A stretch of 64,000 nt of DNA, taken from a virus. Taxonomy: Duplodnaviria; Caudoviricetes. Of this stretch, positions 2,644-50,638 are shown piece by piece. A program made the position numbers and the translations under genes. The stretch covers positions 9,935 to 73,934 of IMG/VR virus record IMGVR_UViG_3300042885_000751; one strand, 5' to 3'. Position 1 is the first letter of the stretch; each line of letters begins with the position of its first letter. The notes below the pieces were generated by a model. The model ran no database searches. It had not been told where the DNA came from and was given only the letters and a program-made list of their open reading frames with translations.

Positions 2644-2655
2644 TATTATTATGTT

Positions 2656-10649: not shown

Positions 10650-10709
10650 ACTTTTAATGTTTATTCAGTAAACCAAAAATTATTATATTTAATATATATT
10701 ACATGTTAT

Positions 10710-13232: not shown

Positions 13233-13241
13233 TTTTATATT

Positions 13242-16214: not shown

Positions 16215-16279
16215 ACTTTATAGGTTTAGTAAACTTATAAAATTTTAATATATTTACAATATAGATTAATACTAATAAT

Positions 16280-19267
16280 ATGAGTACTTACATAAGTGGT
16301 GTCACTGATTTTATTCCTCAATTTCAACCTTTTCAACCTGATTTAAACTTTTATGCAAATGCATTGCAAACAAAGCAGAATCAGTATGATACAAACTATA
16401 AAGCATTAAATAATGTTTATGGTCAATATTTCTATGCAGATTTAACTCATGGGGATAATCTTAAAAAGAAAGATGAATTACTTAAAGCAATTGACTTTAA
16501 TTTAAAACGTGTCTCTGGTTTAGATTTATCATTAGAGCAAAATGTTGATCAAGCTACTCAAGTATTTAAACCATTTTATCAAGATAAATATCTTATGAGA
16601 GATATGGCTTGGACTAAAAATAAAAATAGTGAGAGAGAATATGGCCTTGGTTTAAAGAATAATAGAGATGAAAAACAAGGAAAGAAATATTGGGAAGAAG
16701 GTATAAGATTTTTAGATTATAAAACTGAAGAGTTTAAAAATGGATCACTTGAAGATACAATGAATATGGGAAATGCAACATATACTCCTTATGTCAATGT
16801 AATTGAAAAAGCTCAAAAAATTGCTAAAGATCAAGGTTTTCATGTTGAAAGTGTAGATACTAGTCCAGATGGTAAATGGATGATTACTACTACAAACGGT
16901 AAACAAATATTACCTCAATTAAAATATTTACTTGAAGCACAACTTGGATCTGATCCTGGTGTTATTGATGTATATAGAACTCAAGCATATGTAAATAGAA
17001 AAGATTATGCATATTCTAATGCAGCTCAATTTAATGGGGATAAGAATGCTGCTGAAATGAAATATCTTTCAGATAATTATACTATACTTAAGGCAGAAAA
17101 TGATGCAAGAAAAAAACAACTAGAAAAAAATAGCCAAGTATATGATAATAAAGCAAAACAAGTTACTCAAGCTATAGAAAGTGGATCATCTACCCCAGAT
17201 ACAGAATCATATCTTGAAAGAATAAGTCATGCAACTGCTGTTAATTCAGCTGTACTTGCAACTACTGATGCTACTGTGTCAGCTTTATCAACTAGTACTG
17301 GAACATTAACTACATCTACAGGATTCACAAATCCATATGGAGATATTGAATCTTTAAGAAATAAAATTGATAATGGAATGGCATCTAAATTGATGCAAAA
17401 AGATTTAAGTGAAGCAGCAGATATCTTTGTATCATTAAACGCTAAACAAAAAGTAGATGCAAATCCATTTGCTATTCAAGAAATAGCTCATAACTATAGA
17501 ATGCAAGAAACTGCATTAAGAAATCAAGGTACAATGCAAGCAGCATTGTTAAGAAATCAATCAGATAGAGAAATTGCTAATGATAAAGTTCTTTATGATA
17601 CTGGAGCTTATGTACCAGATCAAGAAAAATATGTAATGGGTCCTAATGGTGAACAAATGTTAAATCCAAATTTTAACAGACCTGTACTTATGGAAGGAGC
17701 AGATGAAATTTCTGTTGAAAAAGTTGGTTCTGGATCAACTGGAATAGTTAATGTTCAAGATGTTGTAAATAATCAATCAACTAAAGCTGCAAAAGATATA
17801 GTTGAACCATATATGAATAACATGTTTGCATCAATGTCAGAATTATGGGATAAAAATTTATTATCAGCTGAAGATAGAGATATGATTCTTGGTAAAGGAA
17901 GTAGTATTGTAGAATTTAATAAAAAATATCAAGAAAATCCTGCTGCATATATTAAAAGTATGGGAGCTCAAAAACTTAAATCAATTTCAGCTGCTTTTCA
18001 AAAATATTTAACAGATAATAATAATGTTGGTATTAATGATATTGATATAACAATAGATAAAATGTCAAAACTTAATACTAATGTAAATGATTATGTAAGA
18101 TATAAAGAAGATGTTACAGATTGGAAATTAAAAAGTGTTCCTCTTGTTAAAGAGCATGTAGCTAAAAATAATCCTGCTCTTAAAGACTATTTAAAAGATA
18201 TATTTGATAAAAATGGTAATTTAATTAGTGAAAATGCATTTAATAAAAAATATAATTTAGCATCTGCAAATAAAGAAGCTCTAAAAGGATATATACAATA
18301 TCAAACAACAAATCCTAAATCAAGTGGAATCATAACACAAAGTACAATAGATAGAGTTCAAGGATTTGATATATATAATAAAATTAAAGAAGCTGTTCAT
18401 GAAGCATATGGTTCTTCACAAGTAAATTCAAAAGTTCCATCAGGATTTAATCCATTAGGTGCTAATATTAAAGGAGCAGGATTAAGTGTTGAAAGAAATA
18501 TAATGAATGTACATGGTGGTGCTTATTTAACTACAAATGCTCAATATTGGAATCAAACTAAAAAAGATATAAGCAGTATGGATTTTGGTGATAGCAAATC
18601 AGTACAAACTTCATTTAGTGGACCAGTTTTAGGTGTTAATGGAACTAAAAATCAAACAGCTAAAGCATTACTTGATGCTTATATTGCACATGTTAATAAA
18701 AAAGAAAATAAAGCAACAGGGTTTAAAGTTGGTTCACAAATGATTGCAGCTGGAGATTACACAAAAGGTGCAATGATATTTTATCCAGATAAAGCATTTT
18801 TAAAAGAATATACAGGTGCAAAAGTAAAAAATGAAAATGATGAATGGGTTATGTCAAATTTAATAACTCCACAAGAAGAACAAGAAATTTTAAAAAATGG
18901 TATATCAGTTATATCTAATGTAAATAATTTTCAAAATGGACTTATGAAATCTTCTTATATGAGCCCTTTACAAGCGTCAATTGCATATAATAAAGAAAAA
19001 GGAGTTACTATAGTAGATGCAAAAGATAAAACAGGTTATAATACTTTGAATATTAGAGTTGATGAATTTAATACTGGAGATTATATATATACTCAAACTT
19101 ATTCAGTATATGATCCTAATACTAAAAGTTTAATAAAATCAAAACCATATACTGTTTCATCTGTTAATACTGGAAACAATGTTGATGCCGTAAGAGATAA
19201 TATGATGGTAAAATGGGATATGCAAAGAATTCAAAATAATGAATTATTTAATAATGTAAGTAGATAA
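16280..19267 (+). CDS. Large virion/ejection protein
   Basis: 995 aa, no Cys, located between cargo genes and RNAP-associated giants. Confidence 0.55.
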   Translation: MSTYISGVTDFIPQFQPFQPDLNFYANALQTKQNQYDTNYKALNNVYGQYFYADLTHGDNLKKKDELLKAIDFNLKRVSGLDLSLEQNVDQATQVFKPFYQDKYLMRDMAWTKNKNSEREYGLGLKNNRDEKQGKKYWEEGIRFLDYKTEEFKNGSLEDTMNMGNATYTPYVNVIEKAQKIAKDQGFHVESVDTSPDGKWMITTTNGKQILPQLKYLLEAQLGSDPGVIDVYRTQAYVNRKDYAYSNAAQFNGDKNAAEMKYLSDNYTILKAENDARKKQLEKNSQVYDNKAKQVTQAIESGSSTPDTESYLERISHATAVNSAVLATTDATVSALSTSTGTLTTSTGFTNPYGDIESLRNKIDNGMASKLMQKDLSEAADIFVSLNAKQKVDANPFAIQEIAHNYRMQETALRNQGTMQAALLRNQSDREIANDKVLYDTGAYVPDQEKYVMGPNGEQMLNPNFNRPVLMEGADEISVEKVGSGSTGIVNVQDVVNNQSTKAAKDIVEPYMNNMFASMSELWDKNLLSAEDRDMILGKGSSIVEFNKKYQENPAAYIKSMGAQKLKSISAAFQKYLTDNNNVGINDIDITIDKMSKLNTNVNDYVRYKEDVTDWKLKSVPLVKEHVAKNNPALKDYLKDIFDKNGNLISENAFNKKYNLASANKEALKGYIQYQTTNPKSSGIITQSTIDRVQGFDIYNKIKEAVHEAYGSSQVNSKVPSGFNPLGANIKGAGLSVERNIMNVHGGAYLTTNAQYWNQTKKDISSMDFGDSKSVQTSFSGPVLGVNGTKNQTAKALLDAYIAHVNKKENKATGFKVGSQMIAAGDYTKGAMIFYPDKAFLKEYTGAKVKNENDEWVMSNLITPQEEQEILKNGISVISNVNNFQNGLMKSSYMSPLQASIAYNKEKGVTIVDAKDKTGYNTLNIRVDEFNTGDYIYTQTYSVYDPNTKSLIKSKPYTVSSVNTGNNVDAVRDNMMVKWDMQRIQNNELFNNVSR

Positions 19268-22200
19268 TGGAAAATACTTTTAGCCCTTTAGATCCACTTG
19301 GACCAGAATTTGGTAAAGTTCAAGGACCTGCAATTAATGCACAAAGTTTATCTCCATTTGAAGGTGATGTATTAAAAGAAAATAAAATTGATTTTTTTCC
19401 TATTGCACATGATTTTAGTATTGCTGCACATCCTAAATATCCTGTACAAGATGTTGTAACTGGGCGTAGTCCAAATAGACCAGGTTATCAAAATCCAAAT
19501 AAAAATCTTACAGCACAACAACGTGCAGATGCATGGGCAGCTGATAGTGAGATGATGATCAGATCACATAATGATAAAAATACATATGCAAAAATGAATA
19601 TGTATAATGCTGGTCCATCTGGTAATTCATTTTATAAAAGATATGCAGCTTTTGGTGAGAAAAAATTTAATGAATTAGGTTTTTCTCCAATGAGAGATAA
19701 TGAAGCAATATATAATGCTAATACAACTTGGGGAGAAAGAGCATCAAGAATGATGAAAAATTCATTTTTACCTTTACTAGGTAGAGGATTTGTATCTGGT
19801 CCAAAGAGTTTATTTAAAATGATGCAAGGTGATTTTAGTTCTGATCTTGAAGATGCAAGAGCATATGAAGAAGCTGCAGCTATAGGTCAAGATACATCAG
19901 GAGGTTTTGGAGCATTCTTTACTAATACTTCAATGAGTTTTGCATATACTGCGGGTATTATTGGTGAAGCAATTGTTGAAGAAGTTGCAGGTGCTTTACT
20001 TGCTCCTGTTACTTTTGGTGGTTCTTTTTTTGCTGCTACTGCTAACAATTTAAGAAAAGTTGGTAAACTTGGTGATGCTGTTGATTTAGCTGTTGATGGA
20101 TATAGAGCTGTTAATACTACACTTAAAGAAGCAAATAGTATCAATGGTGCTAGAAAAATGTGGAAAGGAGCAGAAACTTTTGGCAATAATAAACTTGTTA
20201 AATTTTTAAATCCACTTGAAAATACATATAGTGCAGTTATGGGCATTGGTAAAAATGCAGATAACTTAACAGGTCTTGCAAGATTATCACGTGAAACTAG
20301 TAAAACAGCAGGTGGTTTATTCAGAGATGTAAGAAATATTAATATGGCATTATCAGAAGCCCGTCTAGAAGGTGGTATGAATGATAATAAAGTATATGAT
20401 GAATTATATGATGAATACTACAGAAAGAATGAAAGAGCTCCAAGTGATGAAGAGCAATATGAAATGACTAAAACTGCAAAAGCATCTGGTATAAATACAT
20501 TGATGTGGAATACTGCATTAATATTTGCATCAAATAAAATTGTACTTCCTAACTTAATGAAATCCGGTGCAGGTAAAAATGCAATTGGTAATAAGTTAGA
20601 TGATGTATTAACCATGAAAGATGGTAAAGTTGTACTTGAAAAAAAATTTGATGCAGGTAAAAAAATTGCAAAAGGTGAATTTACATATGTTGCTAATTCA
20701 TTTAAAAACTCACTTAAAGGATTTAAAGCTGCTCCAATTAGAACTACTGCTAAAGTAGCTGGAACATATCTAAAAGGTAATTTACTTGAAGGTGTTCAAG
20801 AAAACTTACAAGATGTTATATCAGTAGCTAATGAAGAATACTATATTAATTCATATAAGAATAAAGAATTAGGTGCTCACTTATATAATAAATCACAAAG
20901 TTCATTAATGCTAGATGGATTAAAAAATCAATTCTCATCACAGGGATTTGAAACATTTGCTTCAGGTGCATTAATGGGTTTATTTTCTGGTGGATTAAAC
21001 TTAATTAAAGGAGGTTTAGATGCAGGTTATAATAATATATTTAATAAAGAAGAATATAATACATATAAAGCAGAAAGAAAAACACATGGTGAAAATGTAG
21101 CAAAACAATTAACTGCATTGTATAATGACCCTAATGAATTCTTTGACCCAAAGTTATTTAATTATGGTAATCAAAATAATGTTGTAGCAAATACAGAAGA
21201 TGCAGATACTAAAGATAAAAAAGATGATTTGCGTGATGCATTCATGAGTCAAGTATGGACATCATTAAGTTCTAATACACTTAATTATTTTAAAGATCAT
21301 ATCTCTTCATTTAAAGATGTAACACCAGAAGAGTTTGAAGATGCATTTGGATTTGAAAAAGGTACTGGTATTGAAAGACAAGGTAAAATTGATACTATTA
21401 TATCTAAGATAGATGATGTTAAAAAAACATATGATTATGCAAGTGATAGATTTCCTAATCCAATTGACTTAAGTAAATATGATAAAGCTTTACCTGAATA
21501 TAGAGAAGCAGCATTACTTAGTAGAGCTTGGAATGAAGGGGTAAGGCAATATGTTTTTTCAAACCATAAATATATGGACAATGTTGATAGAATGGTAAGT
21601 ATTTCTGGTACCATTCTAGATAATCCATCTATGAAAAAGATGTCTCAAACAGACATGCAAATGATACTTCAACCTTCAAAAATAAATGATGAAGTACAAT
21701 TACTTAAATCAGAAATAGAAGGGCTTAGTCAATTAACTGATTCTAAGTCTAAAGCAGAATTATTAAAAAAACAAAATAAAGTAACAGCTTTAGAAGAATA
21801 TGCATCTGCACATAATATGCATGAAGCATACTATAACAGTTCTACAAGAGATCAGTTTATTAATGATTTATTTGAAGAAGTAAAAAAACAACAAGGTGTT
21901 GCAGAATTAACAGAAGATGATAAAAAACAAATACTTGAGATTCAAGAAAATGCAGTTGATAATGATTTAGAATTAGCATATAAAAACTTTTTAAAAGTTG
22001 CAAATGGCATTGATTCATCTTATATATTTGATACTGATGTTGATGAAAGTTTTAGTAAGCTTAAAGATCATTATAAAATAGATGAAGAAACAAAAGATCT
22101 TGTTAAACAAATTAATTTAATGCATGACCCAAAGTTTTTTATGGGTCAAGTTAATAAATCTAAAGTTTGGATGACTAATATGTACAATAATAGAAAAGAC

Positions 22201-24957
22201 TATTTTGTAGATATGGTTAATAAGCAAATTAATGGATTAGAAAATAATACATTCTTAAATGCATTAGCTGATAAAAATATATTCATGGATCTTGAAGAAT
22301 TTCAAAATTATATGGATAATAATGTTCCACCTAAAGAATTTCTTAATGATACTACAAAACAAGTAATAAAACCAGGTACTATTGAATATGCATTAATATT
22401 TGATATGCTACAAAAGAATAAAGAATTAAAAACTCAAGAGACATCAAAAGAAACATTTGAAGAAAAATTACAAACAGTACTTGATGGTTTAGATATAGCA
22501 GAACAAAAAGAAATTGATAAGCTAGAAAAAACTGAAGTTAAAACTAAAGTTAAAACAGTTAAGAGAGAGGGTATAAAAATTAAAGATGTTGCTATTGAAA
22601 TTGCACTTGGAGAATATGTAGATATAACAATTGAAAAAACAGATCAGGTATTAACATTATTTAGTTCTGCTGAAGGATTAAGAAATAATAATAAAGATGG
22701 TGACGTAATTAGCATTAAGGATATCAAGGATACATTCTCTGAATATACAATTTATAAACTTGAACTTAAACCAAATGCAGCAGAGGTTAAAGAAATAAAT
22801 AAAAAATATACAGATCTTAAGAAAGAAGCAATAGATAAATTTAAAGCTGAAAAAAGTAAAAATGAATTAAAACAATATTCAATATATACTGAGTTAAAAG
22901 ATTTCCCTAAAGACTTATACAAAGAGTTGCAGGCTGAATTTAATAAATCTGAAGAACTAGCAGCTGCATCTGATGAAGACTTATCTGATGAAGAGATATT
23001 AGATATGTTTAAAGCATTTATTGAAAAAGATGCTAATGCTAAAACTATTATAGATAATTATAATGGTAAAAATGCAGAAGAAGTAAAAAAAGAAGAATCT
23101 GGTGAAATAGAGGAATTTGATTTTCAATATAATAATAAAACTGAAAACACTTCTAAATTTGATAATGAGCAAATAAAAACTTTAAGTAGTCAATTTAAGA
23201 ATTTTAGAGATAGTGAAACTGATCCTGTAAAAAAAGAATATTATGCAAAGGTGGTTAATGATTTTAAAAAATTAATTGCTACACGTTTACTAAAAAGCTA
23301 TAAACCTGATATACAAGAGACAATAAGAATTATAAAAGAAAAGTTAACTGATCAACAAGGAAGAGCACAAAAAATAGGTCAACTGGGTTATTTAGTAAAT
23401 AATAAAATTCTTGAAAGAGTAACTAATTTTATACAAGGTTTAAAAAGTAATAAATATAAATACACAGGAAAACAAATAATAACTAATGCTTTTGATATTA
23501 CTATTAATAAAACTGGATTGAATAAAGAAAGCATTGATGCTTTCATGACTGAGATTGATGAAAAATTAATGCCAACTCCAACAAAAGATACAGGATATAC
23601 AAAAGATACTCTTGATGGTGTTGCATCCACTTCAAATAATTTAAGAAATTACTTAAATGATATACTTGAAAATAAAGAAACAAATGGTCTTAAGAGTAAA
23701 AAAGATCAGTTAGATGCAATACAAAAATATATATCTGATAATGCATATGAGTATACAAGAAAAGCTGGTGATTATTTAGATGAGCAATTAAAAAGTTTCT
23801 TTACTAAAGGAGAAAAACCAGAATTTAAAGAATCAGAAATTATTAGAGAAGCATTTGATGATATATTTGGACCTAAAGGTTTTTTAAAACCCATTAAACA
23901 AAAAATAGATTCAGGTGAGTTATATGTATTAGCAAAAAATCTTGTAGTATTTGATGAAGAAAGTGGTATTGCTGGTGAAATGGATTTACTGCTTATTGAT
24001 AAACAAGGTAAATTACACATAGTAGATTTTAAAACTGGTGAACAAAAAAAATGGAATGGCTTTGTTGAAGGAACAGATTCAGGTTTAAATAAAACTGAAG
24101 ACTATACTCTACAACAATATACTTATGCTAGATTATTAAAAAAGATGACAGGACTTGATGCTGAAATAAACATCATGCCTATTGAAATAAATATTAATAA
24201 ATATAGATATCAAATTGGAACTGTAAATGAACCTACTAATAAAAAGTTATTAGGTTTAGATAATTGGTATTTTCCATTAGATCCTAATTTTGCTGATGCT
24301 AAAACTAAAATAGATAAAGAAATTAGTATTACAGAACCTGTTATTACTGAGCCTGTTATTACAGAACCTGGTATTAAAGTAGCTACAGAAGTAAAATTAA
24401 GTGATGAAGATAAAACTAAACTAGGTAGACTTGGTTATAAATCTGAATTTTATAGACAGCTTTCTAAAGAAGACTTAACAAAAATACTTCAAGATAGTAT
24501 TCCAATTGAAGTGTTTACTAAAGAGCAAACAATAACTGAAGAAAAACAAGTTACAAAAGTATCTGAACTTACTTTTAAAAATGGTGATACTGTTATAGTT
24601 GAGAAAACAATACCTGGTAGAAAAAATGATCCTGATTTTGCTTCAGTAGGTGCAGTAATAACTGTTATAGAAACTACAGAAAAAGGTGTCAGATTTACAT
24701 ACATGGGACGCCAAAAAACATTATCTTTGTCTGAGTTAGATAAATATGTTACAACAAAAACTATTGAGAAAACTAAAGAAGCTGAAAAGGGTGATGAAGT
24801 TTTAGATGCAATAGATCAAGACTTAATTGCTGAGTCATTAAAAGTATTAAAAGATTTTATTTCTAGTGATACAAATATAAATAAAGCAAAAACAAATGCT
24901 AATGATAAAACATTAGTAGAGATTTATGATGAATTATTAAAATACTTAGATTGTTAA
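19267..24957 (+). CDS. Giant ejected protein with hydrophobic segments and C-terminal PD-(D/E)XK nuclease domain
   Basis: Gly/Ala hydrophobic stretches near N-terminus; GIAGEMDLLLID...IVDFKTG...YTLQQYTY nuclease motif; ends in Cys. Confidence 0.7.
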   Translation: MENTFSPLDPLGPEFGKVQGPAINAQSLSPFEGDVLKENKIDFFPIAHDFSIAAHPKYPVQDVVTGRSPNRPGYQNPNKNLTAQQRADAWAADSEMMIRSHNDKNTYAKMNMYNAGPSGNSFYKRYAAFGEKKFNELGFSPMRDNEAIYNANTTWGERASRMMKNSFLPLLGRGFVSGPKSLFKMMQGDFSSDLEDARAYEEAAAIGQDTSGGFGAFFTNTSMSFAYTAGIIGEAIVEEVAGALLAPVTFGGSFFAATANNLRKVGKLGDAVDLAVDGYRAVNTTLKEANSINGARKMWKGAETFGNNKLVKFLNPLENTYSAVMGIGKNADNLTGLARLSRETSKTAGGLFRDVRNINMALSEARLEGGMNDNKVYDELYDEYYRKNERAPSDEEQYEMTKTAKASGINTLMWNTALIFASNKIVLPNLMKSGAGKNAIGNKLDDVLTMKDGKVVLEKKFDAGKKIAKGEFTYVANSFKNSLKGFKAAPIRTTAKVAGTYLKGNLLEGVQENLQDVISVANEEYYINSYKNKELGAHLYNKSQSSLMLDGLKNQFSSQGFETFASGALMGLFSGGLNLIKGGLDAGYNNIFNKEEYNTYKAERKTHGENVAKQLTALYNDPNEFFDPKLFNYGNQNNVVANTEDADTKDKKDDLRDAFMSQVWTSLSSNTLNYFKDHISSFKDVTPEEFEDAFGFEKGTGIERQGKIDTIISKIDDVKKTYDYASDRFPNPIDLSKYDKALPEYREAALLSRAWNEGVRQYVFSNHKYMDNVDRMVSISGTILDNPSMKKMSQTDMQMILQPSKINDEVQLLKSEIEGLSQLTDSKSKAELLKKQNKVTALEEYASAHNMHEAYYNSSTRDQFINDLFEEVKKQQGVAELTEDDKKQILEIQENAVDNDLELAYKNFLKVANGIDSSYIFDTDVDESFSKLKDHYKIDEETKDLVKQINLMHDPKFFMGQVNKSKVWMTNMYNNRKDYFVDMVNKQINGLENNTFLNALADKNIFMDLEEFQNYMDNNVPPKEFLNDTTKQVIKPGTIEYALIFDMLQKNKELKTQETSKETFEEKLQTVLDGLDIAEQKEIDKLEKTEVKTKVKTVKREGIKIKDVAIEIALGEYVDITIEKTDQVLTLFSSAEGLRNNNKDGDVISIKDIKDTFSEYTIYKLELKPNAAEVKEINKKYTDLKKEAIDKFKAEKSKNELKQYSIYTELKDFPKDLYKELQAEFNKSEELAAASDEDLSDEEILDMFKAFIEKDANAKTIIDNYNGKNAEEVKKEESGEIEEFDFQYNNKTENTSKFDNEQIKTLSSQFKNFRDSETDPVKKEYYAKVVNDFKKLIATRLLKSYKPDIQETIRIIKEKLTDQQGRAQKIGQLGYLVNNKILERVTNFIQGLKSNKYKYTGKQIITNAFDITINKTGLNKESIDAFMTEIDEKLMPTPTKDTGYTKDTLDGVASTSNNLRNYLNDILENKETNGLKSKKDQLDAIQKYISDNAYEYTRKAGDYLDEQLKSFFTKGEKPEFKESEIIREAFDDIFGPKGFLKPIKQKIDSGELYVLAKNLVVFDEESGIAGEMDLLLIDKQGKLHIVDFKTGEQKKWNGFVEGTDSGLNKTEDYTLQQYTYARLLKKMTGLDAEINIMPIEININKYRYQIGTVNEPTNKKLLGLDNWYFPLDPNFADAKTKIDKEISITEPVITEPVITEPGIKVATEVKLSDEDKTKLGRLGYKSEFYRQLSKEDLTKILQDSIPIEVFTKEQTITEEKQVTKVSELTFKNGDTVIVEKTIPGRKNDPDFASVGAVITVIETTEKGVRFTYMGRQKTLSLSELDKYVTTKTIEKTKEAEKGDEVLDAIDQDLIAESLKVLKDFISSDTNINKAKTNANDKTLVEIYDELLKYLDC
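24328..24371 (+). repeat. 15-nt in-frame tandem repeat x3 (ITEPV)
   Basis: ATTACAGAACCTGTT ATTACTGAGCCTGTT ATTACAGAACCTGG encodes ITEPVITEPVITEPG. Confidence 0.85.
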
Positions 24958-24961
24958 TATT

Positions 24962-27900
24962 ATGGTAAACTGTTCATTATCACCAACACAAGTTGAAAAT
25001 TTATATAAGTTAATATATAAACAAATGCTTAATTCTTTAGAGGATAATTCTTTTAATCAAGAAGCATTTATGACTGACCTATTTGAAAAAATAGAACAAA
25101 AAGCAGATATTAATACAGCATCTACTTTTTTACAAGTTGTACCTGTTTTAATGAAAGAGGCACTTGAACAAGATGAATTAGGAAATGTTAATTTTGATTT
25201 AAATATTAATAGGGAATTAATAAATAACTTTAAAAATACAGAAAACGGATTATTTAAAACATTAAAATATTTTAAACCTGAAGCTACTTTAGCAGATTTA
25301 GAAATCAGTATGGAAATAGAAAAAGGTATAATAAATACTCCTGAATCAGATCAAGGTGATGAATTAACTGATATACTTAATGATCCATTTAGATGGCAAG
25401 CAGATGATGCTTTAACTTCTACAATGCAAGAACTTTCTACTAGAAAACCTGATGAAAAAGACACTGGAGCTAAAGAAAAAAAAGATCCTAATAAAGAAAG
25501 AATATATAGAGCAATAAGAAAGATTAAAGAAAAAGGTGTAAGAAAAGAAGGTGGACCTGAATTAATTTATCAAGGTAAAGTATTAAAATTAAAAACAGTA
25601 AAATTATTAAGTCTTAATGCTAAAAATTTACTTGATAAAACTACTGTTGCATTTGTAATAAAAAGTAATTCAATAGTAGATCAAGGTACTAGTCTAGAAG
25701 ATGTAACTCCTGCTAAAGATATAATTGCATTAGTAGTAACTGATGAAAATGGTGTAGAATTATTTTTTGATGAAAATGGAAACATATCTACTAAAGAAGA
25801 AGGTGGTCAAATTGTATATCAATTTTTAAGAGATGTAAGAACTGAAAAAGATTCTAATAAATTAAGAGTTACAGACATATATGGTTTAGAAGATAGAATT
25901 CTTTCACCTGCAGAATTAATTGAAAAAGATGCTCATAATAGTAAAATGAGTATGGAGTCATATAAAAAATGGTTAATTGACCAGGGTACTACATATGAAG
26001 AATTACTTGTTGCAGTAGATAATAAACAACAAGAAAGCTTTAAAGAATTACAAAATTTAAGAGATGATGCACGTGCAGATAAACCTAAATTATTAAACAT
26101 AACAGATATTAGTGCTGGTATTACTGATGTTTTCTTTTCTGAAACAAGTACAACATTAGATGACTTTCTTACTAGTAGTAAAAAAACATTTGAAGATTTA
26201 GATCTTCAAATTAATCCAGATAAATTTACTGCTCAAGTATATGTAAATGATACTTATTATACAATTGATAGACCTAATTTACCTGAAGAATACATAAATC
26301 AAATTGCTGCTGTATTAGTAAATCCTAAATTAACTAATGAACAGAAAAATAATTTTTATTTACAGTTTACTAATAATAATATTAATAGAGATAAAAGAAA
26401 ATTACTTGTATTTTATGATTCAGTAACAAAAGAATTAACAGCTAAATATAGAACTAAGTCTTCTGAAAGTGCTCAATTATTTGATTTATCAGCTTCTGGT
26501 GCTGAAAAAATTATAATTGACAGTTTATTGTATGAAAGTACATATGTTAAAACTAATGGTGAAACAGAAATTTATGCTACTACCATGGGTTATAATAAAG
26601 ATTTACTTATAAGTAAAGGTGTCAGTAAATTTTATACATATGACCGTACTACTGATAAACTTATAGCTAAGTCATATAAAGATTTTCTTAATGGATTAGA
26701 CTTAAAAGTTTTAAAACCAGATACTGAAAAAAATGATAAAGATAAAGCAGTAAATAATCCATATTTTCAATTTAGAATTGATAAAGATTTTATTGCTGAA
26801 ACAGAAGAAGTTAAAGAAGCAACAACATCTACTCCTGTAGATAAAATTAAAGAAACTAAAGATAACCTTGTTGCTAAATTAAAAGTTAATAAAGATTTAT
26901 CTGGTACTATATACAGTGGTAAAGCACTTACAGATGCTACATTTGAAATGATGATAGATGGTGTACGTGTAGAAGGTAGATATGAGGATGGTAAACCAAT
27001 TGCAGGTATAAAAATTGGTGATCCGGTAACATTTATAGTTAATGATGTATCTCCTACTATAACTGATGTGATATCAATATATAAAGGAGATAAAAAAATA
27101 GGTCAAGTAAGTCAAACTGATTTTACCTTAAAACCAAAAACTCCTAAAGCAACTGTTACTCCACAACAAAAAGCAGCTGAAAAAGATAAACCACTTACTA
27201 ATCCAGATAAAGTTGGTCAAGCTGATGATACAACTGGTATAAGTGATGCATTTGATTTAAATAGATCTGCTAAATTACCTAATAATGTTACTCAAGAAGA
27301 AATTACTGCTGCTCAAGAATGGTGGGATAATTCTCCATTATCTAAACTTATTAAACTTGAGCACATGGCTAACATTGTTAACTCTGATGTTTATGCAAGA
27401 TTTATTATAGCAGGTAAAAGATTAGAGGATACTAAAATACAATTAGATACTGCTACTGGTAGTTCTGCTGTAGATTTATACCATGAAGCTTGGCATGCAT
27501 TTTCTCAATTATATTTAACTAAGGATCAAAAAACTAAGTTATATGCTGAGACAAGAAAAAGATTAAATAACTATGATCTTTCTCCAATTGAAGTAGAAGA
27601 AATTATTGCTGAAGACTTTAGAGATTATGCTAAAAATCCTCAAACTATAAAAGATGGGCCAACAAGAAATAGTTTATTCAGAAAAATCTGGAATTTCATT
27701 AAAGCATTATTTGGTAAACAAAATACTAAAGATGAGTTATTTGAGAAATTATTTTTTGCAAGTAAAAACCCTAAGCTTTTAAACAAATATACTCCACTTG
27801 TTGATAACCATATGTTCAACACTCTTAATAGAGCAAGAGGTATAGTCAACACTGAAACAAAAGAACTTGTTTTAAATTATCAAGATAGTCTTAAGGTATC

Positions 27901-30900: not shown

Positions 30901-33900
30901 TGGTAAAGCAGTAGCAGATCAGATATATGATGATAATGGTGCTCAAAAAACATTAAAATCAGATATTGCTTTTACTCCAAATACAATATACTTAGCATAT
31001 CTTAAAAATGTTACAGCTGTTCCAATTAAATTAAAAGGTAAAACAGTATTCTCTACTCAGTTAAGAAAACTTATTATTGAAGGTTTATATGAGAATGGTA
31101 AATTAGTTAATCAAGAATATGCACCATTTGTTAAAGCTTATGAAGATGCTGTAAATGGTTATACTGAAATACTAAAAACTGAATTATTAAATGAAATTGG
31201 TTATGAATATAAAGATGGTAAATATGTTAGTGGTAATATAACTAAATTCATGGATGTAGTTCAAAGAGAACTTACTAGAAAAGATTTACCAGAACATTTA
31301 ATTGACTATATTCAAGTTGGTTCTAATAATGTTTTAACAAAAGATTTATCATTACATATGCTTTCAGGAGACATTGAAAAAATGATAACATCACTTGTTG
31401 AAAAAAGAATCATAAAACAAAAAGTAAAAGGTGAAGCATTAGTACAGGTTGCTAGTTCTTTAACTAATGGATTATGGGATTCAGGTTTTAAATTTGAAAA
31501 AGCTCAAACTGCAGAAATAGAAAAATACTTAGGTACTAATAACTTACCTTTCTATAATCCAGGTGAAAATGGTAATACATCTGCAATGAAAGTTGCTATT
31601 GCATTACAAGGTGATTTTAAAAATCTTTTAAAACTGAAAGATCTTGATGGTGTAGAAATAGGTACAAGAGAAAGATTAAATGTATTAATTAAAAATGATG
31701 AGTGGTTAAATAAAGGCAATAACCGGAAATCTGTTACTTTATCAGCTGTAAGGATCCCTGTACAAGGAATGAACTCTATGGAGTTTATGGAAGTATATGA
31801 ATTTTTAGATCCAGCTGCAGGTTCTATTATTATTCCTCCATCAGAAATTGTTGCTAAATCAGGAGCAGATTATGATGTTGATAAGCTTACTACATTCATG
31901 CCTAATATAGATGAAAATGGTAATTATGTAACATCTAATATATCTGAGGAAACATTAAAAAAATTAATTGCAAATGCAGAATCTAAAGGTGATAAAGCTG
32001 AAGTAGTTAAATTAATTGCATTACAGAAAAAAGCAATTGAAAATAGATTAATTGATTCTATCAGAGGTATATTACAACTACCTGATAATTATGCTACATT
32101 AGTAAGACCAAATGAAACTTACTTAATGAAAGATATTGCAGATGAGTTAGTAGACTCTTCACCTGAATATGGAAGATATAAAACTATTAGTCCAACAAAT
32201 ACATTAGAGGTAGGTTATAATCTAGCTAAACATGATTATAATATGACAGGGAAAGATGTATTAGGTATTATTGCTCTTGAAAATGCATTACATCCATTGT
32301 ATACAGCATTAGGTGCTGCTTTACCAAAAACATATTATGGTTCAGTTAAAAATAAAAGGACTAAAAAATATGAAGATGATAAAAGTATAATCTATGATAT
32401 GAGATTATTACTTGATCATAATAAAACTGAAGATGGAAGAATTTCTTTATCAGGTATTAATAGTGTAGATGGCCAAGATAAAATAGCAGATTTATTTTCA
32501 CATTTAATGAATGGTTCTGTGGATGTTGAGAAAGATGCATGGATTTTCTTTATTCAAGCTAATAAAGAACTTATACCAATGTTGTTGAATTTACTTAAAG
32601 CTGGTGTCCCAAAAAGACAAGCAGTTTATTTTATATCTCAACCATTAGTAAAAGAATATGCAAATCAACAAAGACTATATGCTAGTACATATGCAAATCT
32701 TACTGGTAAAGAAACATTACCTGATGAAAATGCAAAATATAATGCTCTTCAAGCTACATTAAAACAAACTGATATTAGTCAAGCTATTTTTAAAGCAAAT
32801 GAAAATAGATTAAATAATACATTAGATAATCTTAATCCTAATACTATTATAAAAGTAAAACCAAAAAATAATAAAGATTCATTTGAAATTACTGTTAAAG
32901 AATTTAAAAAATTTATTACTGAAGGTGAGATTAAATTAGACTATACTGATGCATTACTTGATATTAAAGGTAATGTAATATTTAAAAGTATAATTGCAGA
33001 TCCTAATAATGCGTTTTATCACCCAATGTCTACTCCAAACTATAAAGATGTTGTACTTGCAGCAACTGAAGGTATGGATAAGTTTACTACAGCTGATTTA
33101 AAAGAGACAATGGAAAGTAATGATACTACAAGTCCAAAAGCTATTGCAATGTTCTTACATTACCTAGAATATGAAAGGCAAATAAAAGATATGGCTGATC
33201 TTAAAAGACAGTCAAATCCTGATACTGCTACTTCTAAAACTATACAGGAGATCATGCAAAGAAAAATTGGTTTAGATATTTTATCTAGGTCATCTAAAAT
33301 AGATCAAGATTTAGTAAGAAAATTAAGAGAAGAGTCTATATTAGGATCTTTCTTTGATAATGTTATTACTCAAGATTTAGTAGAACCTTTATTTCCATTA
33401 ACAGATGATAAAAGAGTATCTGATTATTTACTTAATTATATTAATAATAATAACATTCCACTTAAATTTGGTGAAGGAGCAGATGGCATAACTAATTTTA
33501 TCACATCATTTAAACAAGCAATGGTAAATTATATTTATCAAAACAGATTAAATGAGATAATAACTACTAAAGAGTCATTCCCAGGTGTACCAGAATTATT
33601 TAATTCTTTAAATCACCAAGCATATGTGACTAGATTTATGAGTATGATAAGTGAAAATACTCACTTAAAAGAATTGTATTCAGTACTAGAACAGATTACT
33701 GATGTACCGGTAAATATATTTGATTCTAAAACTAAGCAAATTAAAGGTCAGATATCTGTATTAACATTAAACAATAAACCTGTAGTAAAAGGAGCACTAT
33801 CTGATAGTTATCATCAAAACTTAATTGATCTTGCTGATGAAAATGTTATTAAAGTAAAAGATCCAGTTAAGAATAAAAAAATATCAGACATGTTTAAGAT

Positions 33901-34879: not shown

Positions 34880-34889
34880 TAATAATATT

Positions 34890-35648
34890 ATGGCTTGTAA
34901 ACTACAAATTAAAGAAGATTTAAATAAAGAAATTGATAAAAAACTAGGTGGGTATAGAGATACTACACATAGTGACTTTAATGCTGAAAGAATCTTAAAA
35001 GATATTAATAATGAATATCCTAAACTAGCTAGTAAAAGTGTTTTTGATAAAGATATAGTTGTAATAAACATTTCTGAAAAAGTTCTTGATAGTATTGTTG
35101 ATGAAAAATATAATGCTCAATTACAAATAGAAGAAGAGTTAGCAATGATGTCTGGTGAAGTAGATTTTGATGAAAGAGATATTAGTTTTTATAATGGTGA
35201 TGAAGCTTTATTTGATCAGGAAAATAGAGAAGAAGCAGAAATAGAAGTAGATGAAGAATACATAGAAGAATACCCTATTCAAACTGAATATAAAAAAGAA
35301 TTTGAGAAGACTGGTAAAAAACCAAAATCAGTTATAATTGGTGGTTCAAAAGCTATTTTAAATAATAATGATACATATGATATAACAGATTTATCAGGTA
35401 AAATAGTATTATTAAAAAATATTGACCTAGATACTATGGAATTAGTAGAAGAACCAGTATCTTTAAAACCATATAATCAAAAAGCATTTAATTCTTTTGT
35501 AAATGATACTATGTTAAATCTATTTACAGAAGAACAACTTGCTTATAAAGGTATTGACATTAATGATATATTTGATGAATTAGAAGTAATTACTACTGAA
35601 TCTGAGTTAGTCAAAATAATGGTTAAAGTACTTAAAAATTTGTGTTAA
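34890..35648 (+). CDS. Acidic hypothetical virion protein with Cys at both termini
   Basis: 252 aa ORF; begins MAC, ends NLC. Confidence 0.6.
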   Translation: MACKLQIKEDLNKEIDKKLGGYRDTTHSDFNAERILKDINNEYPKLASKSVFDKDIVVINISEKVLDSIVDEKYNAQLQIEEELAMMSGEVDFDERDISFYNGDEALFDQENREEAEIEVDEEYIEEYPIQTEYKKEFEKTGKKPKSVIIGGSKAILNNNDTYDITDLSGKIVLLKNIDLDTMELVEEPVSLKPYNQKAFNSFVNDTMLNLFTEEQLAYKGIDINDIFDELEVITTESELVKIMVKVLKNLC

Positions 35649-35666
35649 TTAAAAATTCTAAACAAT

Positions 35667-38600
35667 ATGTATTGCCCAATTAAAACCAGCAAAGAATATG
35701 TAAAAATACTTAACTCAGTAAATGGAAATGATACTAGAGCTGAAGAAGAATGGATTAAACAAGGTTTTGCTAATAATAAAGATTTAAATTATATACCTGA
35801 TGAATTAACTGATAATGCTGAAGTAAAAAAAGATGATATATCTACTATGGTGGATAGTATTTGGGGATATTTAGAAAAACAATTAAAAATACTTCAAGGT
35901 CAAAAATTAATTAATCAAGAAGAAAAAGAAGAAAGACAAAAAAAATTAATTGAAGAATTTAGACATCTTGAAGGTATTAATTCTATTAACATGTTTGTTA
36001 AAGACAGTTATGAAAAAGCTTTAGAAATTGAAAAATTAATGAAAGCTATCATTAATAAAAAAGATGATGGCACAGATGATTTTAAAAAAAATCAAATTGC
36101 TGAACTTACTAAGTTAAATAATTTTGCTAGTGGTTATAGTATTCTTGATGAAATTTCTAAAGCTGATATATATAGTTTTTTTACTGCAAAAGAAGGAGAA
36201 GAACAAGTCTCTGAAGAAACTGGTAAAACTATAAGAGAAATGTTAACAGATGCAATCTCAATAAAAAAAGCAGTTAAAGAACAATATATAAGACAGGGTA
36301 TACCATTAATGGCCTCATTTTTACTTAATTATAAAAATTTAAATTTAGATGAAGCAATTGATAATGAAGTAAATGCATTAATAAAAAAATTAGAAGCTGA
36401 AAAAACATCTGCAAATGCTAATGATAAAAAAATTAAACAGATAACAGATAGAATTACTAAATATAGATCTTTTACACAGACTCAAGAGTCAATGGAAGAT
36501 TTATTAAAATTTGCTGCTAAAGATGAAGGTTCAATGGAATTTTGGTTTGGACCATTAATAACTAATGCAGATGCTTCATTAGGTTTATTTGCAAGAGCAG
36601 TTAAAACAGAATTTGAAAGTGCAAGACAATTGGATATAGATATAGCAAAACTTGCAGGTAAAGCATTTACAAAATATAAAGATAGTCAAGCAGAAAGCAG
36701 AGACAATCCAGCTAAGTTTAATGAAGGTTTATATGAAGTATTATCATCTTATAGTACAGATAAGAATGGTGAACCTGTTATTACTAAAAAAATGGCTTTT
36801 GTACAAAAATACCGTATGAGTGATTATAATAAAGAGTTAAATAAAATATATACTAATCCAATTAAAGGTACTGATCTTTCACCTGCTCAATTAAGAGCAA
36901 AATCTGATTATGAAGCTAATAAAACTACTATAATAAGAGACTGGTATGCTGAGAATGCACAAAAGAAAAGTGATGCAGAAATTGATAAAATTCTTGCTGA
37001 AAAAAATAAATTACTAAATTCTGGTGCTTGGAATCAAAAAGATTATGATAAATGGCATAAATCTGTTTTAAAAATCTTAGATAATGGTACTAAGATTTAT
37101 ATGAAAGAATTTAGTGAGCCAGCTGATAAATATCTTAATAAAAAATGGGAAGCTTTGTATGATAAAAATGATAAACCTAAAAATGCTAAAGGGGAATACC
37201 ATTCATTTTTATTAAATCTATATCTTGATGCTCAAGAAAAAGTACCAGATACTCAAAAAATGGGTTATGTTTTACCATCAATACATAAACGTACTATAGA
37301 AAGAAGTAGTATTAAAAGTGTTATAAAAGATAAATTTGAAGATGCAACAACTATAAGAGGAGATGAACCTGAATTTGGTGTTTCAGATTTATCTAATGAA
37401 AGTGCAAAGTTTATACCCGTATACTATACTCAAGATATGGATGCTGATGAAGTAAGTTTAGATTTAATAAGATCTGTAGAACTTTATTCTCAAATGGCAA
37501 ATAAATATGAATCAGTAAATAATATCTCAGCAGAAACATCAATGTTTAAAGCCATTATAGGAGATAGAGAAGTTGCTGTAACTACTTCTAAAGATGTTAA
37601 AGTATTAGATGCACTTGCAAATAAACTTGGTATTAAATCTACTATTAAAAAACAAGGTGAAGCAAATTCTAAAAAACATGTAGATGCATTTATAAATATG
37701 CAATTATATAATGAAATGCAAAAAGCTGAAGTAATTGGAAGTTATTCTATGGGTAAATTAACAAATCTTGCTTTAAGTTATTCTGCTATAACAAGTATTG
37801 CTGCAGATTTACTTAAAGGTGTTGCAAATAATTTACAAGGTAATATCCAATTAATTATTGAAGCTAACTCATCTGAATTTTTCAGTAGAAAAGATTTAAG
37901 AAAAGGTAAATTGTATTATGCAAAAAATGTAACCTCATTTCTTTCTGATTTTGGTAAACCAACACCTGATTCATTAGTAGGTAATCTTGTAAATCATTAT
38001 GACCCAATGCAAGGTAACTATAAAGATCAGTATGGTAAAAATGTTTCAGGTAGTGTATTTGCTAAGTTAATGAGAACAGATACACTATTCTTTAATCAGC
38101 ATTTTGGTGAGCATGAGATACAAGTATCTGCAATGTTTGCATTAATGGAAGCAACTAAAGTAACTGATACTAATACTGGAGAAACAATTTCTCTTTTAGA
38201 TGCATATACTAAATACGGCATTAAAGAACTTGATAAAAATACAGATTTCAATAATACAAAGAAACTTGACTTACAAAATAGAATACATGCAATAAGTAAA
38301 AAATTACATGGTGTCTATAATGATTTTGATAAAGGTACTGCACAAAGATATTCAGTAGGTAGATTAGCTATCATGTATAGAAAACATCTTATACCTGGTT
38401 ATAAAAGAAGATATGGTAAACTTCAAGTAGATCAAGAACTTGGTGCTGTAACTGAAGGTTACTATATAACTTTTTATAATACAATGTTAAAAGATTTGGC
38501 TAAGCTGAAACTTAATATGATGCAGAACTGGTCAACATATACACCTTTTGAAAAAGCACAAATCAAAAGAGTAATGGCTGAAACAGTAATCATATTTGGA

Positions 38601-38981
38601 ACAACTGCTTTTATAATGTTATTAATGCATGCTTTTGGTGATGATGATGATGAGAAAAAAGGATATGTATACAATTTTATGTTGTATGAATTATCTAGAA
38701 TGCAATCTGAAACTGCATCATATATATCTCCTCAAGATGCTTATCGTACTGTTAAATCTCCATCAGCTATGGTTAGTACAATAGAAAGAATGACAAAATT
38801 TGTTGATCAATTTTTATTTACATGGAGTCCTGAAAAATTAAGTTATCAAAGAAAAGAAGGTGTATGGAATAAAGGTGATAATAAATCTTGGGCATACTTT
38901 CTTAAACTAATGGGTTTCTCTGGATATAATTTTAATCCAGAAGCAGCAGTTAAATCATTTAAAGCTACACTATTAAAATAA
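35667..38981 (+). CDS. Large ejected/RNAP-associated protein with C-terminal hydrophobic helix
   Basis: 1104 aa; LHGVYN...GRLAIMYRKHL motif and ETVIIFGTTAFIMLLMHAF segment typical of the last giant crAss virion protein. Confidence 0.65.
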   Translation: MYCPIKTSKEYVKILNSVNGNDTRAEEEWIKQGFANNKDLNYIPDELTDNAEVKKDDISTMVDSIWGYLEKQLKILQGQKLINQEEKEERQKKLIEEFRHLEGINSINMFVKDSYEKALEIEKLMKAIINKKDDGTDDFKKNQIAELTKLNNFASGYSILDEISKADIYSFFTAKEGEEQVSEETGKTIREMLTDAISIKKAVKEQYIRQGIPLMASFLLNYKNLNLDEAIDNEVNALIKKLEAEKTSANANDKKIKQITDRITKYRSFTQTQESMEDLLKFAAKDEGSMEFWFGPLITNADASLGLFARAVKTEFESARQLDIDIAKLAGKAFTKYKDSQAESRDNPAKFNEGLYEVLSSYSTDKNGEPVITKKMAFVQKYRMSDYNKELNKIYTNPIKGTDLSPAQLRAKSDYEANKTTIIRDWYAENAQKKSDAEIDKILAEKNKLLNSGAWNQKDYDKWHKSVLKILDNGTKIYMKEFSEPADKYLNKKWEALYDKNDKPKNAKGEYHSFLLNLYLDAQEKVPDTQKMGYVLPSIHKRTIERSSIKSVIKDKFEDATTIRGDEPEFGVSDLSNESAKFIPVYYTQDMDADEVSLDLIRSVELYSQMANKYESVNNISAETSMFKAIIGDREVAVTTSKDVKVLDALANKLGIKSTIKKQGEANSKKHVDAFINMQLYNEMQKAEVIGSYSMGKLTNLALSYSAITSIAADLLKGVANNLQGNIQLIIEANSSEFFSRKDLRKGKLYYAKNVTSFLSDFGKPTPDSLVGNLVNHYDPMQGNYKDQYGKNVSGSVFAKLMRTDTLFFNQHFGEHEIQVSAMFALMEATKVTDTNTGETISLLDAYTKYGIKELDKNTDFNNTKKLDLQNRIHAISKKLHGVYNDFDKGTAQRYSVGRLAIMYRKHLIPGYKRRYGKLQVDQELGAVTEGYYITFYNTMLKDLAKLKLNMMQNWSTYTPFEKAQIKRVMAETVIIFGTTAFIMLLMHAFGDDDDEKKGYVYNFMLYELSRMQSETASYISPQDAYRTVKSPSAMVSTIERMTKFVDQFLFTWSPEKLSYQRKEGVWNKGDNKSWAYFLKLMGFSGYNFNPEAAVKSFKATLLK

Positions 38982-50154: not shown

Positions 50155-50291
50155 TAGTCTTTAATTTTAGTTTTTATTTTATTAATCCATTCAGGAAAAG
50201 CCATAAACCAAAGAGCATACAAACCCATGCATGTTAAAAGTAATAAACTGATTCCTAGTATAACCAATACTATTATTCCAATAATCTTCAT
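50154..50291 (-). CDS. Small membrane protein (45 aa), not in ORF track
   Basis: MKIIGIIVLVILGISLLLLTCMGLYALWFMAFPEWINKIKTKIKD; TAATG-coupled at both ends. Confidence 0.7.
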   Translation of the reverse strand: MKIIGIIVLVILGISLLLLTCMGLYALWFMAFPEWINKIKTKIKD

Positions 50292-50638
50292 TAGTCTTCA
50301 ATTTTTAAAGTTTTTATTGCCCATTCTTTAGGTTTACCTGATGATATCATATCAACCCATTCTTTAGCAGTAGGAATATAGTTATTACAATCCTCTTTTA
50401 CATGTTGTTCTCCAACATATCTTGTATATACAGTTTTACCATCTGAATTTATAAATGATGCTCCAAATACTTTTTCACATTCAAATATACCTTCACTGTG
50501 GTGACGGAACATTCTGTGTTTACTATGACCTATCCAAGCTTTAGTTTCATCAAACCAGTTGTGAATTGCCTCATAATCAGATATTTGTCCTCCAAATTTC
50601 TTTACTGAGCTTTTACAATGTTGTAAGGGGTGTGCCAT
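50291..50638 (-). CDS. His-rich protein (DUF6915-like)
   Basis: MAHPLQH..SSVKKFGG...IHNWFD...HRMFRHHSEG...EQHVKED pattern. Confidence 0.7.
   Translation of the reverse strand: MAHPLQHCKSSVKKFGGQISDYEAIHNWFDETKAWIGHSKHRMFRHHSEGIFECEKVFGASFINSDGKTVYTRYVGEQHVKEDCNNYIPTAKEWVDMISSGKPKEWAIKTLKIED

Follow-up and report, generated by a model that had tools for sequence, protein, structure and literature searches.

How does a phage that carries several giant proteins in its virion send them out in one order and in matched numbers? This question is raised by a 64,000-nucleotide (nt) stretch of the IMG/VR virus record IMGVR_UViG_3300042885_000751 (Duplodnaviria; Caudoviricetes; positions 9,935 to 73,934 of that record), hereafter the window, in which four consecutive genes, to judge from homology, form the module that supplies a divergent crAss-like phage with its virion-packaged RNA polymerase (RNAP). 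Their products, here called A, B, C and D, are in turn a protein resembling gp47, the RNAP, a small link protein and a protein resembling gp49. The four proteins are nearly devoid of cysteine (Cys), and the few Cys that they do contain stand at the termini with which neighbouring proteins face each other. How cargo proteins are arranged has been called an open question in the main text of Bayfield 2023 (PMC10172136) and in a 2026 paper on N4. Our reading, to which we assign a probability of roughly 0.6, is that head-to-tail disulfides rebuild a split polyprotein as one thread, which would then be released by reduction in the cytoplasm.

The pattern itself is evident from the translated open reading frames (ORFs). 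The chain A to D contains 6 Cys per 6557 amino acids (aa), each at residue 3-4 or at the last residue (Table 1), and the four ORFs preceding it contain 0 Cys in 3726 aa, while the structural ORFs further upstream (369-7944) contain 4, 4, 11 and 17. In the remaining 33 proteins of the window there are 114 Cys in 9242 aa, or 1.23%; at that frequency, the probability of finding 6 or fewer Cys in the 10283 aa of all eight giant proteins is 2.4e-46, and the probability that six randomly placed Cys would all lie within 4 residues of a terminus is 1.4e-14. Neighbouring chain genes are separated by only 4-18 nt. The first-pass annotation of this DNA had already described the six facing Cys, the absence of Cys from the four upstream proteins and the abundance of Cys in the ring and muzzle proteins, and translation of the ORFs together with the junction DNA bears out its counts, ORFs and codon positions; a check for overlooked internal Cys in A to D found none. 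The four upstream proteins are presumed from their position, like crAss001 gp45 and gp46, to be cargo as well.

Table 1. Members of the proposed chain and associated features in the window.
Feature	Position	Strand	Description
Chain member 1 (A), 1896 aa	19267..24957	+	crAss001 gp47-like cargo (by homology); sole Cys is Cys1896, the last residue (codon 24952-24954)
Chain member 2 (B), 3305 aa	24962..34879	+	virion RNA polymerase (by homology); sole Cys are Cys4 (codon 24971-24973) and the last residue, Cys3305 (codon 34874-34876)
RNAP catalytic DxDxD motif, DYDVD, aa 2303-2307 of B	31868..31882	+	corresponds to invariant D496/D498/D500 of alignment A1
Chain member 3 (C), 252 aa	34890..35648	+	small link protein; Cys3 (codon 34896-34898) and the last residue, Cys252 (codon 35643-35645)
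Chain member 4 (D), 1104 aa	35667..38981	+	crAss001 gp49/phi14:2 g065 homologue; sole Cys is Cys3 (codon 35673-35675), C-terminal Cys absent
Four Cys-free ORFs (901, 840, 990, 995 aa)	7944..19267	+	presumed cargo/ejection proteins outside the chain

Assignment of the module to the crAss-like virion RNAP block is based on several lines of homology. A tblastn search with D found 91 phage records, nearly all of them crAss-like, at about 25% identity and annotated as ‘RNA-polymerase subunit’ (crAss001 gp49, phi14:2 g065), and in local blastp D matches crAss001 gp49 (expect value, E, 4e-53) and phi14:2 g065 (E 1.5e-41). Local blastp also maps B to the virion RNAP, both phi14:2 g066 (E 7e-27) and crAss001 gp50. 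The aspartates of its DxDxD motif are invariant in A1, an alignment of the RNAP core from seven phages, and the profile of A1 finds the phi14:2 RNAP structure, PDB 6VR4, with an E of 2.4e-251. The match of A to crAss001 gp47 is weak and of partial coverage in blastp (E 5e-9); jackhmmer with A recovers crAss001 gp47 and DAC15 protein 61, and the C-terminal domain of A is conserved to its very end among relatives. PHROGs and Pfam assign no family to the chain proteins, and the four Cys-free upstream proteins likewise have no PHROGs match. Packaging and ejection of the window proteins would follow from homology to phi14:2 and crAss001: the module proteins of phi14:2 are virion proteins by mass spectrometry (record annotation), and those of crAss001, with masses of 262 (gp47), 277 (gp50) and 154 kDa (gp49), were detected in the virion in the same way, its cargo being thought, in the main text of that study, to be ejected partly unfolded through the narrow tail (Bayfield 2023, PMC10172136).

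Is the pattern peculiar to the window? A scan of IMG/VR with the profile of the RNAP core, a query blind to Cys content, gave 496 confirmed stretches, and the best 80 (28-77% identity to the window core) were used. With the window these make 81 loci, 11 of which were removed as redundant at 90% core identity, leaving 70 clusters (69 from IMG/VR and the window). ORFs of at least 150 aa were listed on the plus strand, minus-strand and shorter ORFs being ignored; junctions with a gap of more than 300 nt or an overlap of more than 60 nt were skipped, and at each remaining junction Cys were counted as terminal when they fell within the final 10 residues of the upstream protein or the first 10 of its downstream neighbour. 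Among the 154 adjacent same-strand junctions obtained in this way, both Cys are present in 132, neither in 20, and only 2 are discordant. The first-pass annotation had asked whether a C-terminal Cys always meets an N-terminal one in the following gene, and this outcome is in its favour. The 203 chain proteins of these loci (443,524 aa) contain 267 terminal Cys and 28 internal ones (0.006%), with N-terminal Cys at residues 3-7 and C-terminal Cys at positions -1 to -10, mostly -1 to -3. Purifying conservation is strong and is focused on the same residues: across 56 aligned A tails, whose mean column identity is 14%, the C-terminal Cys is the sole invariant column, and in 56 aligned RNAP heads Cys4 is among 3 columns conserved at 90% or above. 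Both discordant junctions flank a single ORF of locus L069 (15375-15923; 182 aa, 3 internal Cys), which lies between chain members, separates two Cys that would otherwise pair across a junction and has the look of a gene insertion. A 202-aa ORF with 4 internal Cys also lies between chain members in L050 (15844-16452).

The outer ends of the chain follow a rule of their own. In the loci, the first member never has an N-terminal Cys, as far as complete A proteins are concerned, and the last member never has a C-terminal one, so the chain, as read from sequence, is linear and not circular. A phmmer search with D against a library of 1.84 billion proteins gave 2594 matches, and of the best 150 representatives 116 carry a Cys within 10 residues of the N-terminus, against 0 within 10 residues of the C-terminus. 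The others of these 150 comprise 14 N-terminally truncated fragments, 12 giants (3953-5388 aa) that have the RNAP motif and lack an N-terminal Cys, and 8 further representatives without an N-terminal Cys (2 giants, 1 with an internal Met giving M-S-C, and 5 that are Cys-free). Eight of the 12 giants are wholly Cys-free (P0019, P0041, P0049, P0058, P0070, P0077, P0105, P0114), each a single protein with both the RNAP motif and the gp49-like part; P0087, a single giant of the same kind, is also Cys-free.

Terminal Cys in the same arrangement are found in the annotated proteins of 14/14 reference phages, namely 6 Steigviridae, 3 Intestiviridae, 4 Suoliviridae and the Leptolyngbya cyanophage Lbo-JY46. 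In phi14:2, the sole Cys of g067 (1797 aa) is its last residue, g066 (2180 aa) has Cys3 and Cys2179 only, and g065 (1421 aa) has Cys3 only; in crAss001, gp47 has Cys2339 of 2341 aa, gp50 has Cys at 5, 1334 and 2404 of 2412 aa, and gp49 has Cys5. DAC15, IAS, cr128_1 and cr116_1 follow the same scheme. In these four phages and crAss001, all Steigviridae, the gene for the gp47-like first member is on the strand opposite the RNAP gene, which rules out a DNA signal at the gene junction as the source of the pattern. It also amends the first-pass annotation, which had proposed that the proteins are linked in gene order: the order that counts is that of the chain and not that of the genes. The three Intestiviridae (p-crAssphage, crAss002, cr3_1) have the RNAP and the gp49-like part fused in one protein of 4070-4245 aa, which has an N-terminal Cys and no C-terminal Cys, and their upstream protein ends in Cys. 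In the Suoliviridae (cr1_1, cr109_1, cr118_1, cr56_1) a protein of 4300-4900 aa without an N-terminal Cys ends in Cys and the next protein begins M-x(1-4)-C-P-N; the protein upstream of the giant is Cys-free in cr1_1, cr109_1 and cr56_1. Finally, in Lbo-JY46 a 1552-aa protein with a single Cys, at its last residue, precedes a 2748-aa protein with a single Cys at residue 4.

Three reference genomes at first appeared to be exceptions. In IAS (L008, NC_049978.1), the boundary between gp055 (‘molybdenum carrier’) and gp056 (RNAP) falls within a run of N at about 10225-10260, and gp055 and gp056 probably form a single protein of about 3000 aa. In cr116_1 (L093, MT774389.1), the RNAP-block gene contains, at 12716-13558, a group I intron that carries a LAGLIDADG-type ORF (gp_24129), the ‘RNAP stop’ lies inside this intron, and the annotated ‘RNAP’ gp_24128 and gp_24130 are probably one spliced protein; the Rfam RF00028 matches to the intron (E 8e-7 and 4e-6) are both below the gathering score. 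In crAss002 (L006, NC_055828.1, 9054-9155), the Cys falls at residue 35 if gp33 is read from its annotated start, while the internal Met33 gives M-S-C, hence Cys3 as in p-crAssphage and cr3_1, and the start has probably been mis-called. The library protein P0130 is a parallel case, with Cys22 after an internal Met. Under translation table 11, the RNAP-block proteins of cr109_1 (L094) and cr56_1 (L096) contain 7-70 in-frame stops, a case of stop-codon recoding, and their terminal Cys pair is retained. As for the cyanophage, Lbo-JY46 (L091, PP438436.1; 8810-21716 and 2713-4737) stands outside the named Crassvirales, its C- and N-terminal Cys pair being on XAI97382 and XAI97381; no DxDxD RNAP motif was found in its block, and XAI97385 has a lone Cys5 with no visible partner.

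The most informative loci are those in which a protein boundary has been added or removed, and here the Cys pairs track the boundaries and are gained and lost with them. Every extra middle protein (165-782 aa) between the RNAP and the last member has both an N- and a C-terminal Cys (L009, L040, L044, L050, L054, L063, L068, L082, L085, L087 and the window), and L087 has an additional upstream split, also with Cys at both ends. Conversely, the pair is absent where modules are fused, as the first-pass annotation had anticipated: this is the case in the Intestiviridae, in the Suoliviridae, in the giant fusions among D homologues and in the 4116-aa RNAP of L010. The last of these ends in a module of about 120 aa that shares homology with the C-terminal half of protein C of the window (E 7e-13), and this RNAP has just 2 Cys, at residue 5 and at the last residue, so that the boundary and its Cys pair are both missing. 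In L069, L079 and L088, about 1600-2000 more residues precede the catalytic motif of the RNAP than in sister loci, the N-terminal Cys is absent and the upstream neighbour has 0 Cys; the size of these proteins and the position of the motif suggest that they are fusions of A and B. The RNAPs of cr1_1, cr109_1 and cr56_1, with their long N-terminal extension, also lack the N-terminal Cys and follow a Cys-free neighbour. A FastTree phylogeny of the 70 RNAP cores requires a minimum of 7 state changes for the middle protein and of 2 for the N-terminal state, at least 9 in all, and the association between Cys and boundary is thus not one inherited accident.

The origin of the small link protein C was considered in this context. 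That it might be a split-off N-terminus of gp49/g065 is hinted at by a fitting length offset and by its first 8 residues, which match the g065 N-terminus at 6/8; this candidate was rejected, as BLASTP shows nothing otherwise and the profile-profile probability is 0.1%. Instead, its module has a homologue in the C-terminal end of larger RNAPs.

If the proteins are joined end to end, their termini should be able to meet, and structure prediction supports this for A and B, a junction chosen as the least obvious one. The last 300 aa of A and the first 400 aa of B, each with a 56-row alignment, were co-folded with an interface score (ipSAE) of 0.73, against 0.00 for the best of 3 controls; a value of 0.73 is reached by 58/80 solved complexes and 2/110 mismatched pairs, counts that are rough for a prediction supplied with its own alignments. 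The runs agree in at least 46% of contacts and the pLDDT (predicted local distance difference test) of the partners is at least 67. The confidently predicted interface includes residues 236-300 of chain 1, with the terminal 297-300, and residues 3-24 of chain 2 plus some later helices, and thus takes in both Cys. Its best contact pairs (294 with 10-17, 290 with 13-20, and 287 with 17-21) read as antiparallel helices, and the predicted joint reads as a helical hairpin with a cut loop and a Cys at each cut end. No PDB sequence matches either segment, so the score is unlikely to reflect a memorised structure. The docking of terminal segments proposed in the first-pass annotation is therefore supported, by prediction, at this junction.

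Taken together, it is tempting to propose a mechanism for delivery of the module. Like other ejected phage proteins, the module proteins are purged of Cys, save for one within about 8 residues of each partner-facing end. The C-terminal helices of one member would dock on the N-terminal helix of the next, and, once the virion leaves the reducing cytoplasm, the terminal thiols would form an intermolecular disulfide. The product would be a linear A-B-C-D concatemer with the topology that relatives achieve in a single giant polyprotein; in the available text of the Drobysheva 2020 preprint (bioRxiv 10.1101/2020.03.07.982082), the three RNAP-module proteins are indeed described as one polyprotein in some crAss-like phages. 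Because each Cys adjoins a terminus, the joint would be thread-like, little wider than two strands, and the chain could pass the tail as one thread, in fixed order and with 1:1 stoichiometry. Host thiol reductases would then reduce the joints, and the chain would come apart. A broader proposal is that the Crassvirales and at least one cyanophage rely on a ‘pseudo-polyprotein’ held together by reducible covalent bonds, in which each cut in a gene gains flanking Cys and a disulfide restores the thread, so that a module of more than 6000 aa would exit as one ordered linear molecule and be dismantled by host reductases, releasing or activating the polymerase. We regard this wider version as tentative, at slightly less than even odds.

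Several observations weigh against the disulfide chain. Gut crAss-like phages inhabit an anoxic environment and are assembled in a reducing cytoplasm, which leaves the moment of oxidation open. The co-fold yields no distance between the sulfurs, and by extrapolation of the helical register the C-terminal Cys would be about one helical turn from Cys4 rather than on it. Internal Cys occur in several gut lineages (7 in p-crAssphage gp44, 9 in IAS gp056 and 8 in the cr116_1 RNAP), and freedom from internal Cys is consequently not universal. Five apparently full-length D-like proteins are Cys-free (P0021, P0062, P0109, P0135, P0148), and BLAST finds no A-like sequence in the N-terminal parts of the L069, L079 and L088 RNAPs. 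The Fisher p for the junction counts (6.9e-23) overstates independence, the 2x2 table being a count of related sequences, and the number of changes on the tree is the fairer measure. Lastly, reduced and non-reduced crAss001 virions have been compared by mass spectrometry with no such link reported in the main text (Bayfield 2023, PMC10172136); the extended data, which could bear on the claim, were outside our scope.

Which other explanations could account for the pattern? The main rival, which we consider unlikely, holds that the termini do dock head to tail, with a shared metal ion or other thiol chemistry, and no disulfide, stabilising a non-covalent joint. The predicted docking would hold whatever the chemistry, acidic residues often stand beside the C-terminal Cys (...DLDC, ...LEICE, ...TSDC), and disulfides are disfavoured in anoxic habitats. 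However, with one Cys per terminus a metal ion would have just two thiol ligands, and neither a His nor a second Cys is conserved alongside. Disulfides are, moreover, documented elsewhere in crAss001 virions, in the tail and in the gp57 dimer (Bayfield 2023, PMC10172136, main text), and a covalent link best explains why the pair is lost exactly where a peptide bond takes over.

Another way to pair the same thiols would be for the middle proteins to self-close or homodimerise and for the C-terminal Cys of the first protein to bind the N-terminal Cys of the last, with no linear chain at all. The counts alone permit this, as the middle proteins have one Cys per end and the first and last proteins one each, but the arrangement is highly improbable. 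It is less parsimonious, in that each fusion or fission would change two Cys that are not partners and force a re-pairing, whereas in the disulfide chain each event involves one partner pair; the co-fold, moreover, sets the tail of A on the head of B, and in two-member systems (p-crAssphage, cr3_1, the Suoliviridae and Lbo-JY46) only the first C-terminus and the second N-terminus are available to each other.

A further alternative is that each terminal Cys acts independently, perhaps as an attachment to portal, tail or DNA, as a redox switch of the RNAP or as a processing signal. Partners for such attachment would exist: in crAss001 the ring, hub and muzzle proteins are rich in Cys and disulfide-bonded (Bayfield 2023, PMC10172136, main text), and in the window they are Cys-rich too. 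We nevertheless judge it very unlikely: independent roles leave unexplained the strict pairing across junctions (132 with both, 20 with neither, 2 discordant) and the lack of Cys at the first N-terminus (complete A proteins) and at the last C-terminus (0/150 D representatives, the best of 2594), and they give no reason why fully fused giants need no Cys. An artefact, whether chance, mis-called starts or a nucleotide signal such as TGT placed by the stop and start codons for translational coupling, gains some appeal from the shortness of all three window junctions and is refuted by the chance probabilities given above (2.4e-46 and 1.4e-14), by persistence of the pattern when partner genes are non-adjacent and on opposite strands (5 Steigviridae), and by Cys offsets (3 to 7 and -1 to -10) too variable for a fixed DNA motif.

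Two more specific roles for a terminal Cys were also considered. A split intein would require Hint/intein domains, and Pfam shows none in any of the four chain proteins; because the Cys lie 0-10 residues from the termini, there is also no room for intein halves. A lipobox Cys, as in bacterial lipoproteins, is ruled out by the position of the N-terminal Cys at residue 3-7, where only 2-6 residues precede it, in place of a signal peptide with a hydrophobic stretch.

Cys depletion in ejected proteins is not without precedent. The giant virion RNAP of N4-like phages and its companions (Schitoviridae gp50/gp51/gp52; DEV gp71-73) are nearly Cys-free, which the available text of one study explains by passage through the periplasm (PMC11445570). 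The window set resembles these ejection proteins in its strong depletion (6 Cys in 10283 aa, compared with 1.23% elsewhere in the window), as do the fully fused crAss-type giants with 0 Cys. In contrast to the N4 and DEV proteins, which have no conserved Cys at all, the crAss-like chain keeps one Cys at each partner-facing terminus, and it is the most conserved residue of its region. The RNAP module itself is also known. Like phi14:2 g067/g066/g065 and crAss001 gp47/gp50/gp49, the window module combines a homologous two-barrel RNAP bearing DxDxD with an adjoining gp49-like subunit and a gp47-like protein, and it differs from both in its extra 252-aa link protein and its much larger RNAP (3305 aa). 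The apparent novelty lies in the retention of one Cys at each partner-facing terminus and in the covalent daisy chain that this would imply.

A single reducible disulfide is a familiar device in two-chain AB toxins, where it keeps two polypeptides joined while they cross the membrane and is broken once they reach the reducing cytosol. The likeness is one of principle only, with no homology: an AB toxin is one proteolytically nicked chain with one bond, whereas the proposed chain would join separate gene products, up to four or five of them, end to end. Closer to hand, the tail and gp57-dimer bonds of crAss001 indicate that intermolecular disulfides occur in virions of the same phage order (Bayfield 2023, PMC10172136, main text); those bonds rigidify a static tail and capsid, in contrast to the proposed ones, which would join mobile cargo linearly. 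No description of terminal Cys or of a link between RNAP proteins was found in full-text searches of the literature or in the available texts of PMC10172136, PMC11445570, PMC13434306 and bioRxiv 10.1101/2020.03.07.982082, with supplements and the journal version of Drobysheva et al. outside our scope; the word ‘cysteine’ occurs 0 times in the available texts of Bayfield 2023 (PMC10172136) and the Drobysheva preprint (bioRxiv 10.1101/2020.03.07.982082).

The rule spans the 3 families of the International Committee on Taxonomy of Viruses that were examined (Steigviridae, Intestiviridae, Suoliviridae), an environmental clade and one cyanophage, and it makes the arrangement of cargo cheaply testable, phi14:2 and crAss001 both being in culture. 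It predicts which proteins are neighbours in the capsid, as well as the order and polarity of the chain; it predicts why gene fission and fusion are so free in the RNAP module, and that infection may depend on thioredoxin-type reduction by the host. The ‘pseudo-polyprotein’, if true, would represent a new way of delivering multi-subunit machines across the cell envelope. For annotation, terminal Cys can mark true starts (crAss002 gp33, P0130), point to introns or faulty assembly (cr116_1, IAS) and pick out chain members whose homology is otherwise undetectable.

Some minor features of the chain proteins and of the surrounding genes may also be mentioned. The only Pfam or PHROGs matches of the chain proteins are sub-threshold, DEK_C and a PD-(D/E)XK nuclease match at aa 1550-1627 of A (window 23914-24147; E 3.8e-4, 20.9 bits against a cut-off of 22). 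The region around the latter recurs in crAss001 gp47, IAS gp057, the last protein of L079 and the RNAPs of L056 and L064, and this recurrence in differing chain members suggests that domains move between them. The long N-terminal part of the RNAP has a single HExxH-type motif, HEAWH (aa 841-845 of B; window 27482-27496), a candidate zincin motif. With respect to thiol chemistry, Pfam finds no phage thioredoxin or oxidoreductase among the 10 small window ORFs scanned; elsewhere, thioredoxin-like genes are annotated a few kilobases from the RNAP block in p-crAssphage (L005, 22965-23243 and 23963-24232) and cr128_1 (L090, 8010-8255). The replication genes of the window lie on the opposite strand, and its DNA polymerase is only about 34% identical to those of other phages. 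This minus-strand block also encodes a SegE-like GIY-YIG endonuclease ORF (52150-52569; Pfam E 3.8e-20), a DUF6915 protein (50291-50638; E 1e-39) and an Lcl_C-domain protein (60258-60608; E 1.4e-11).

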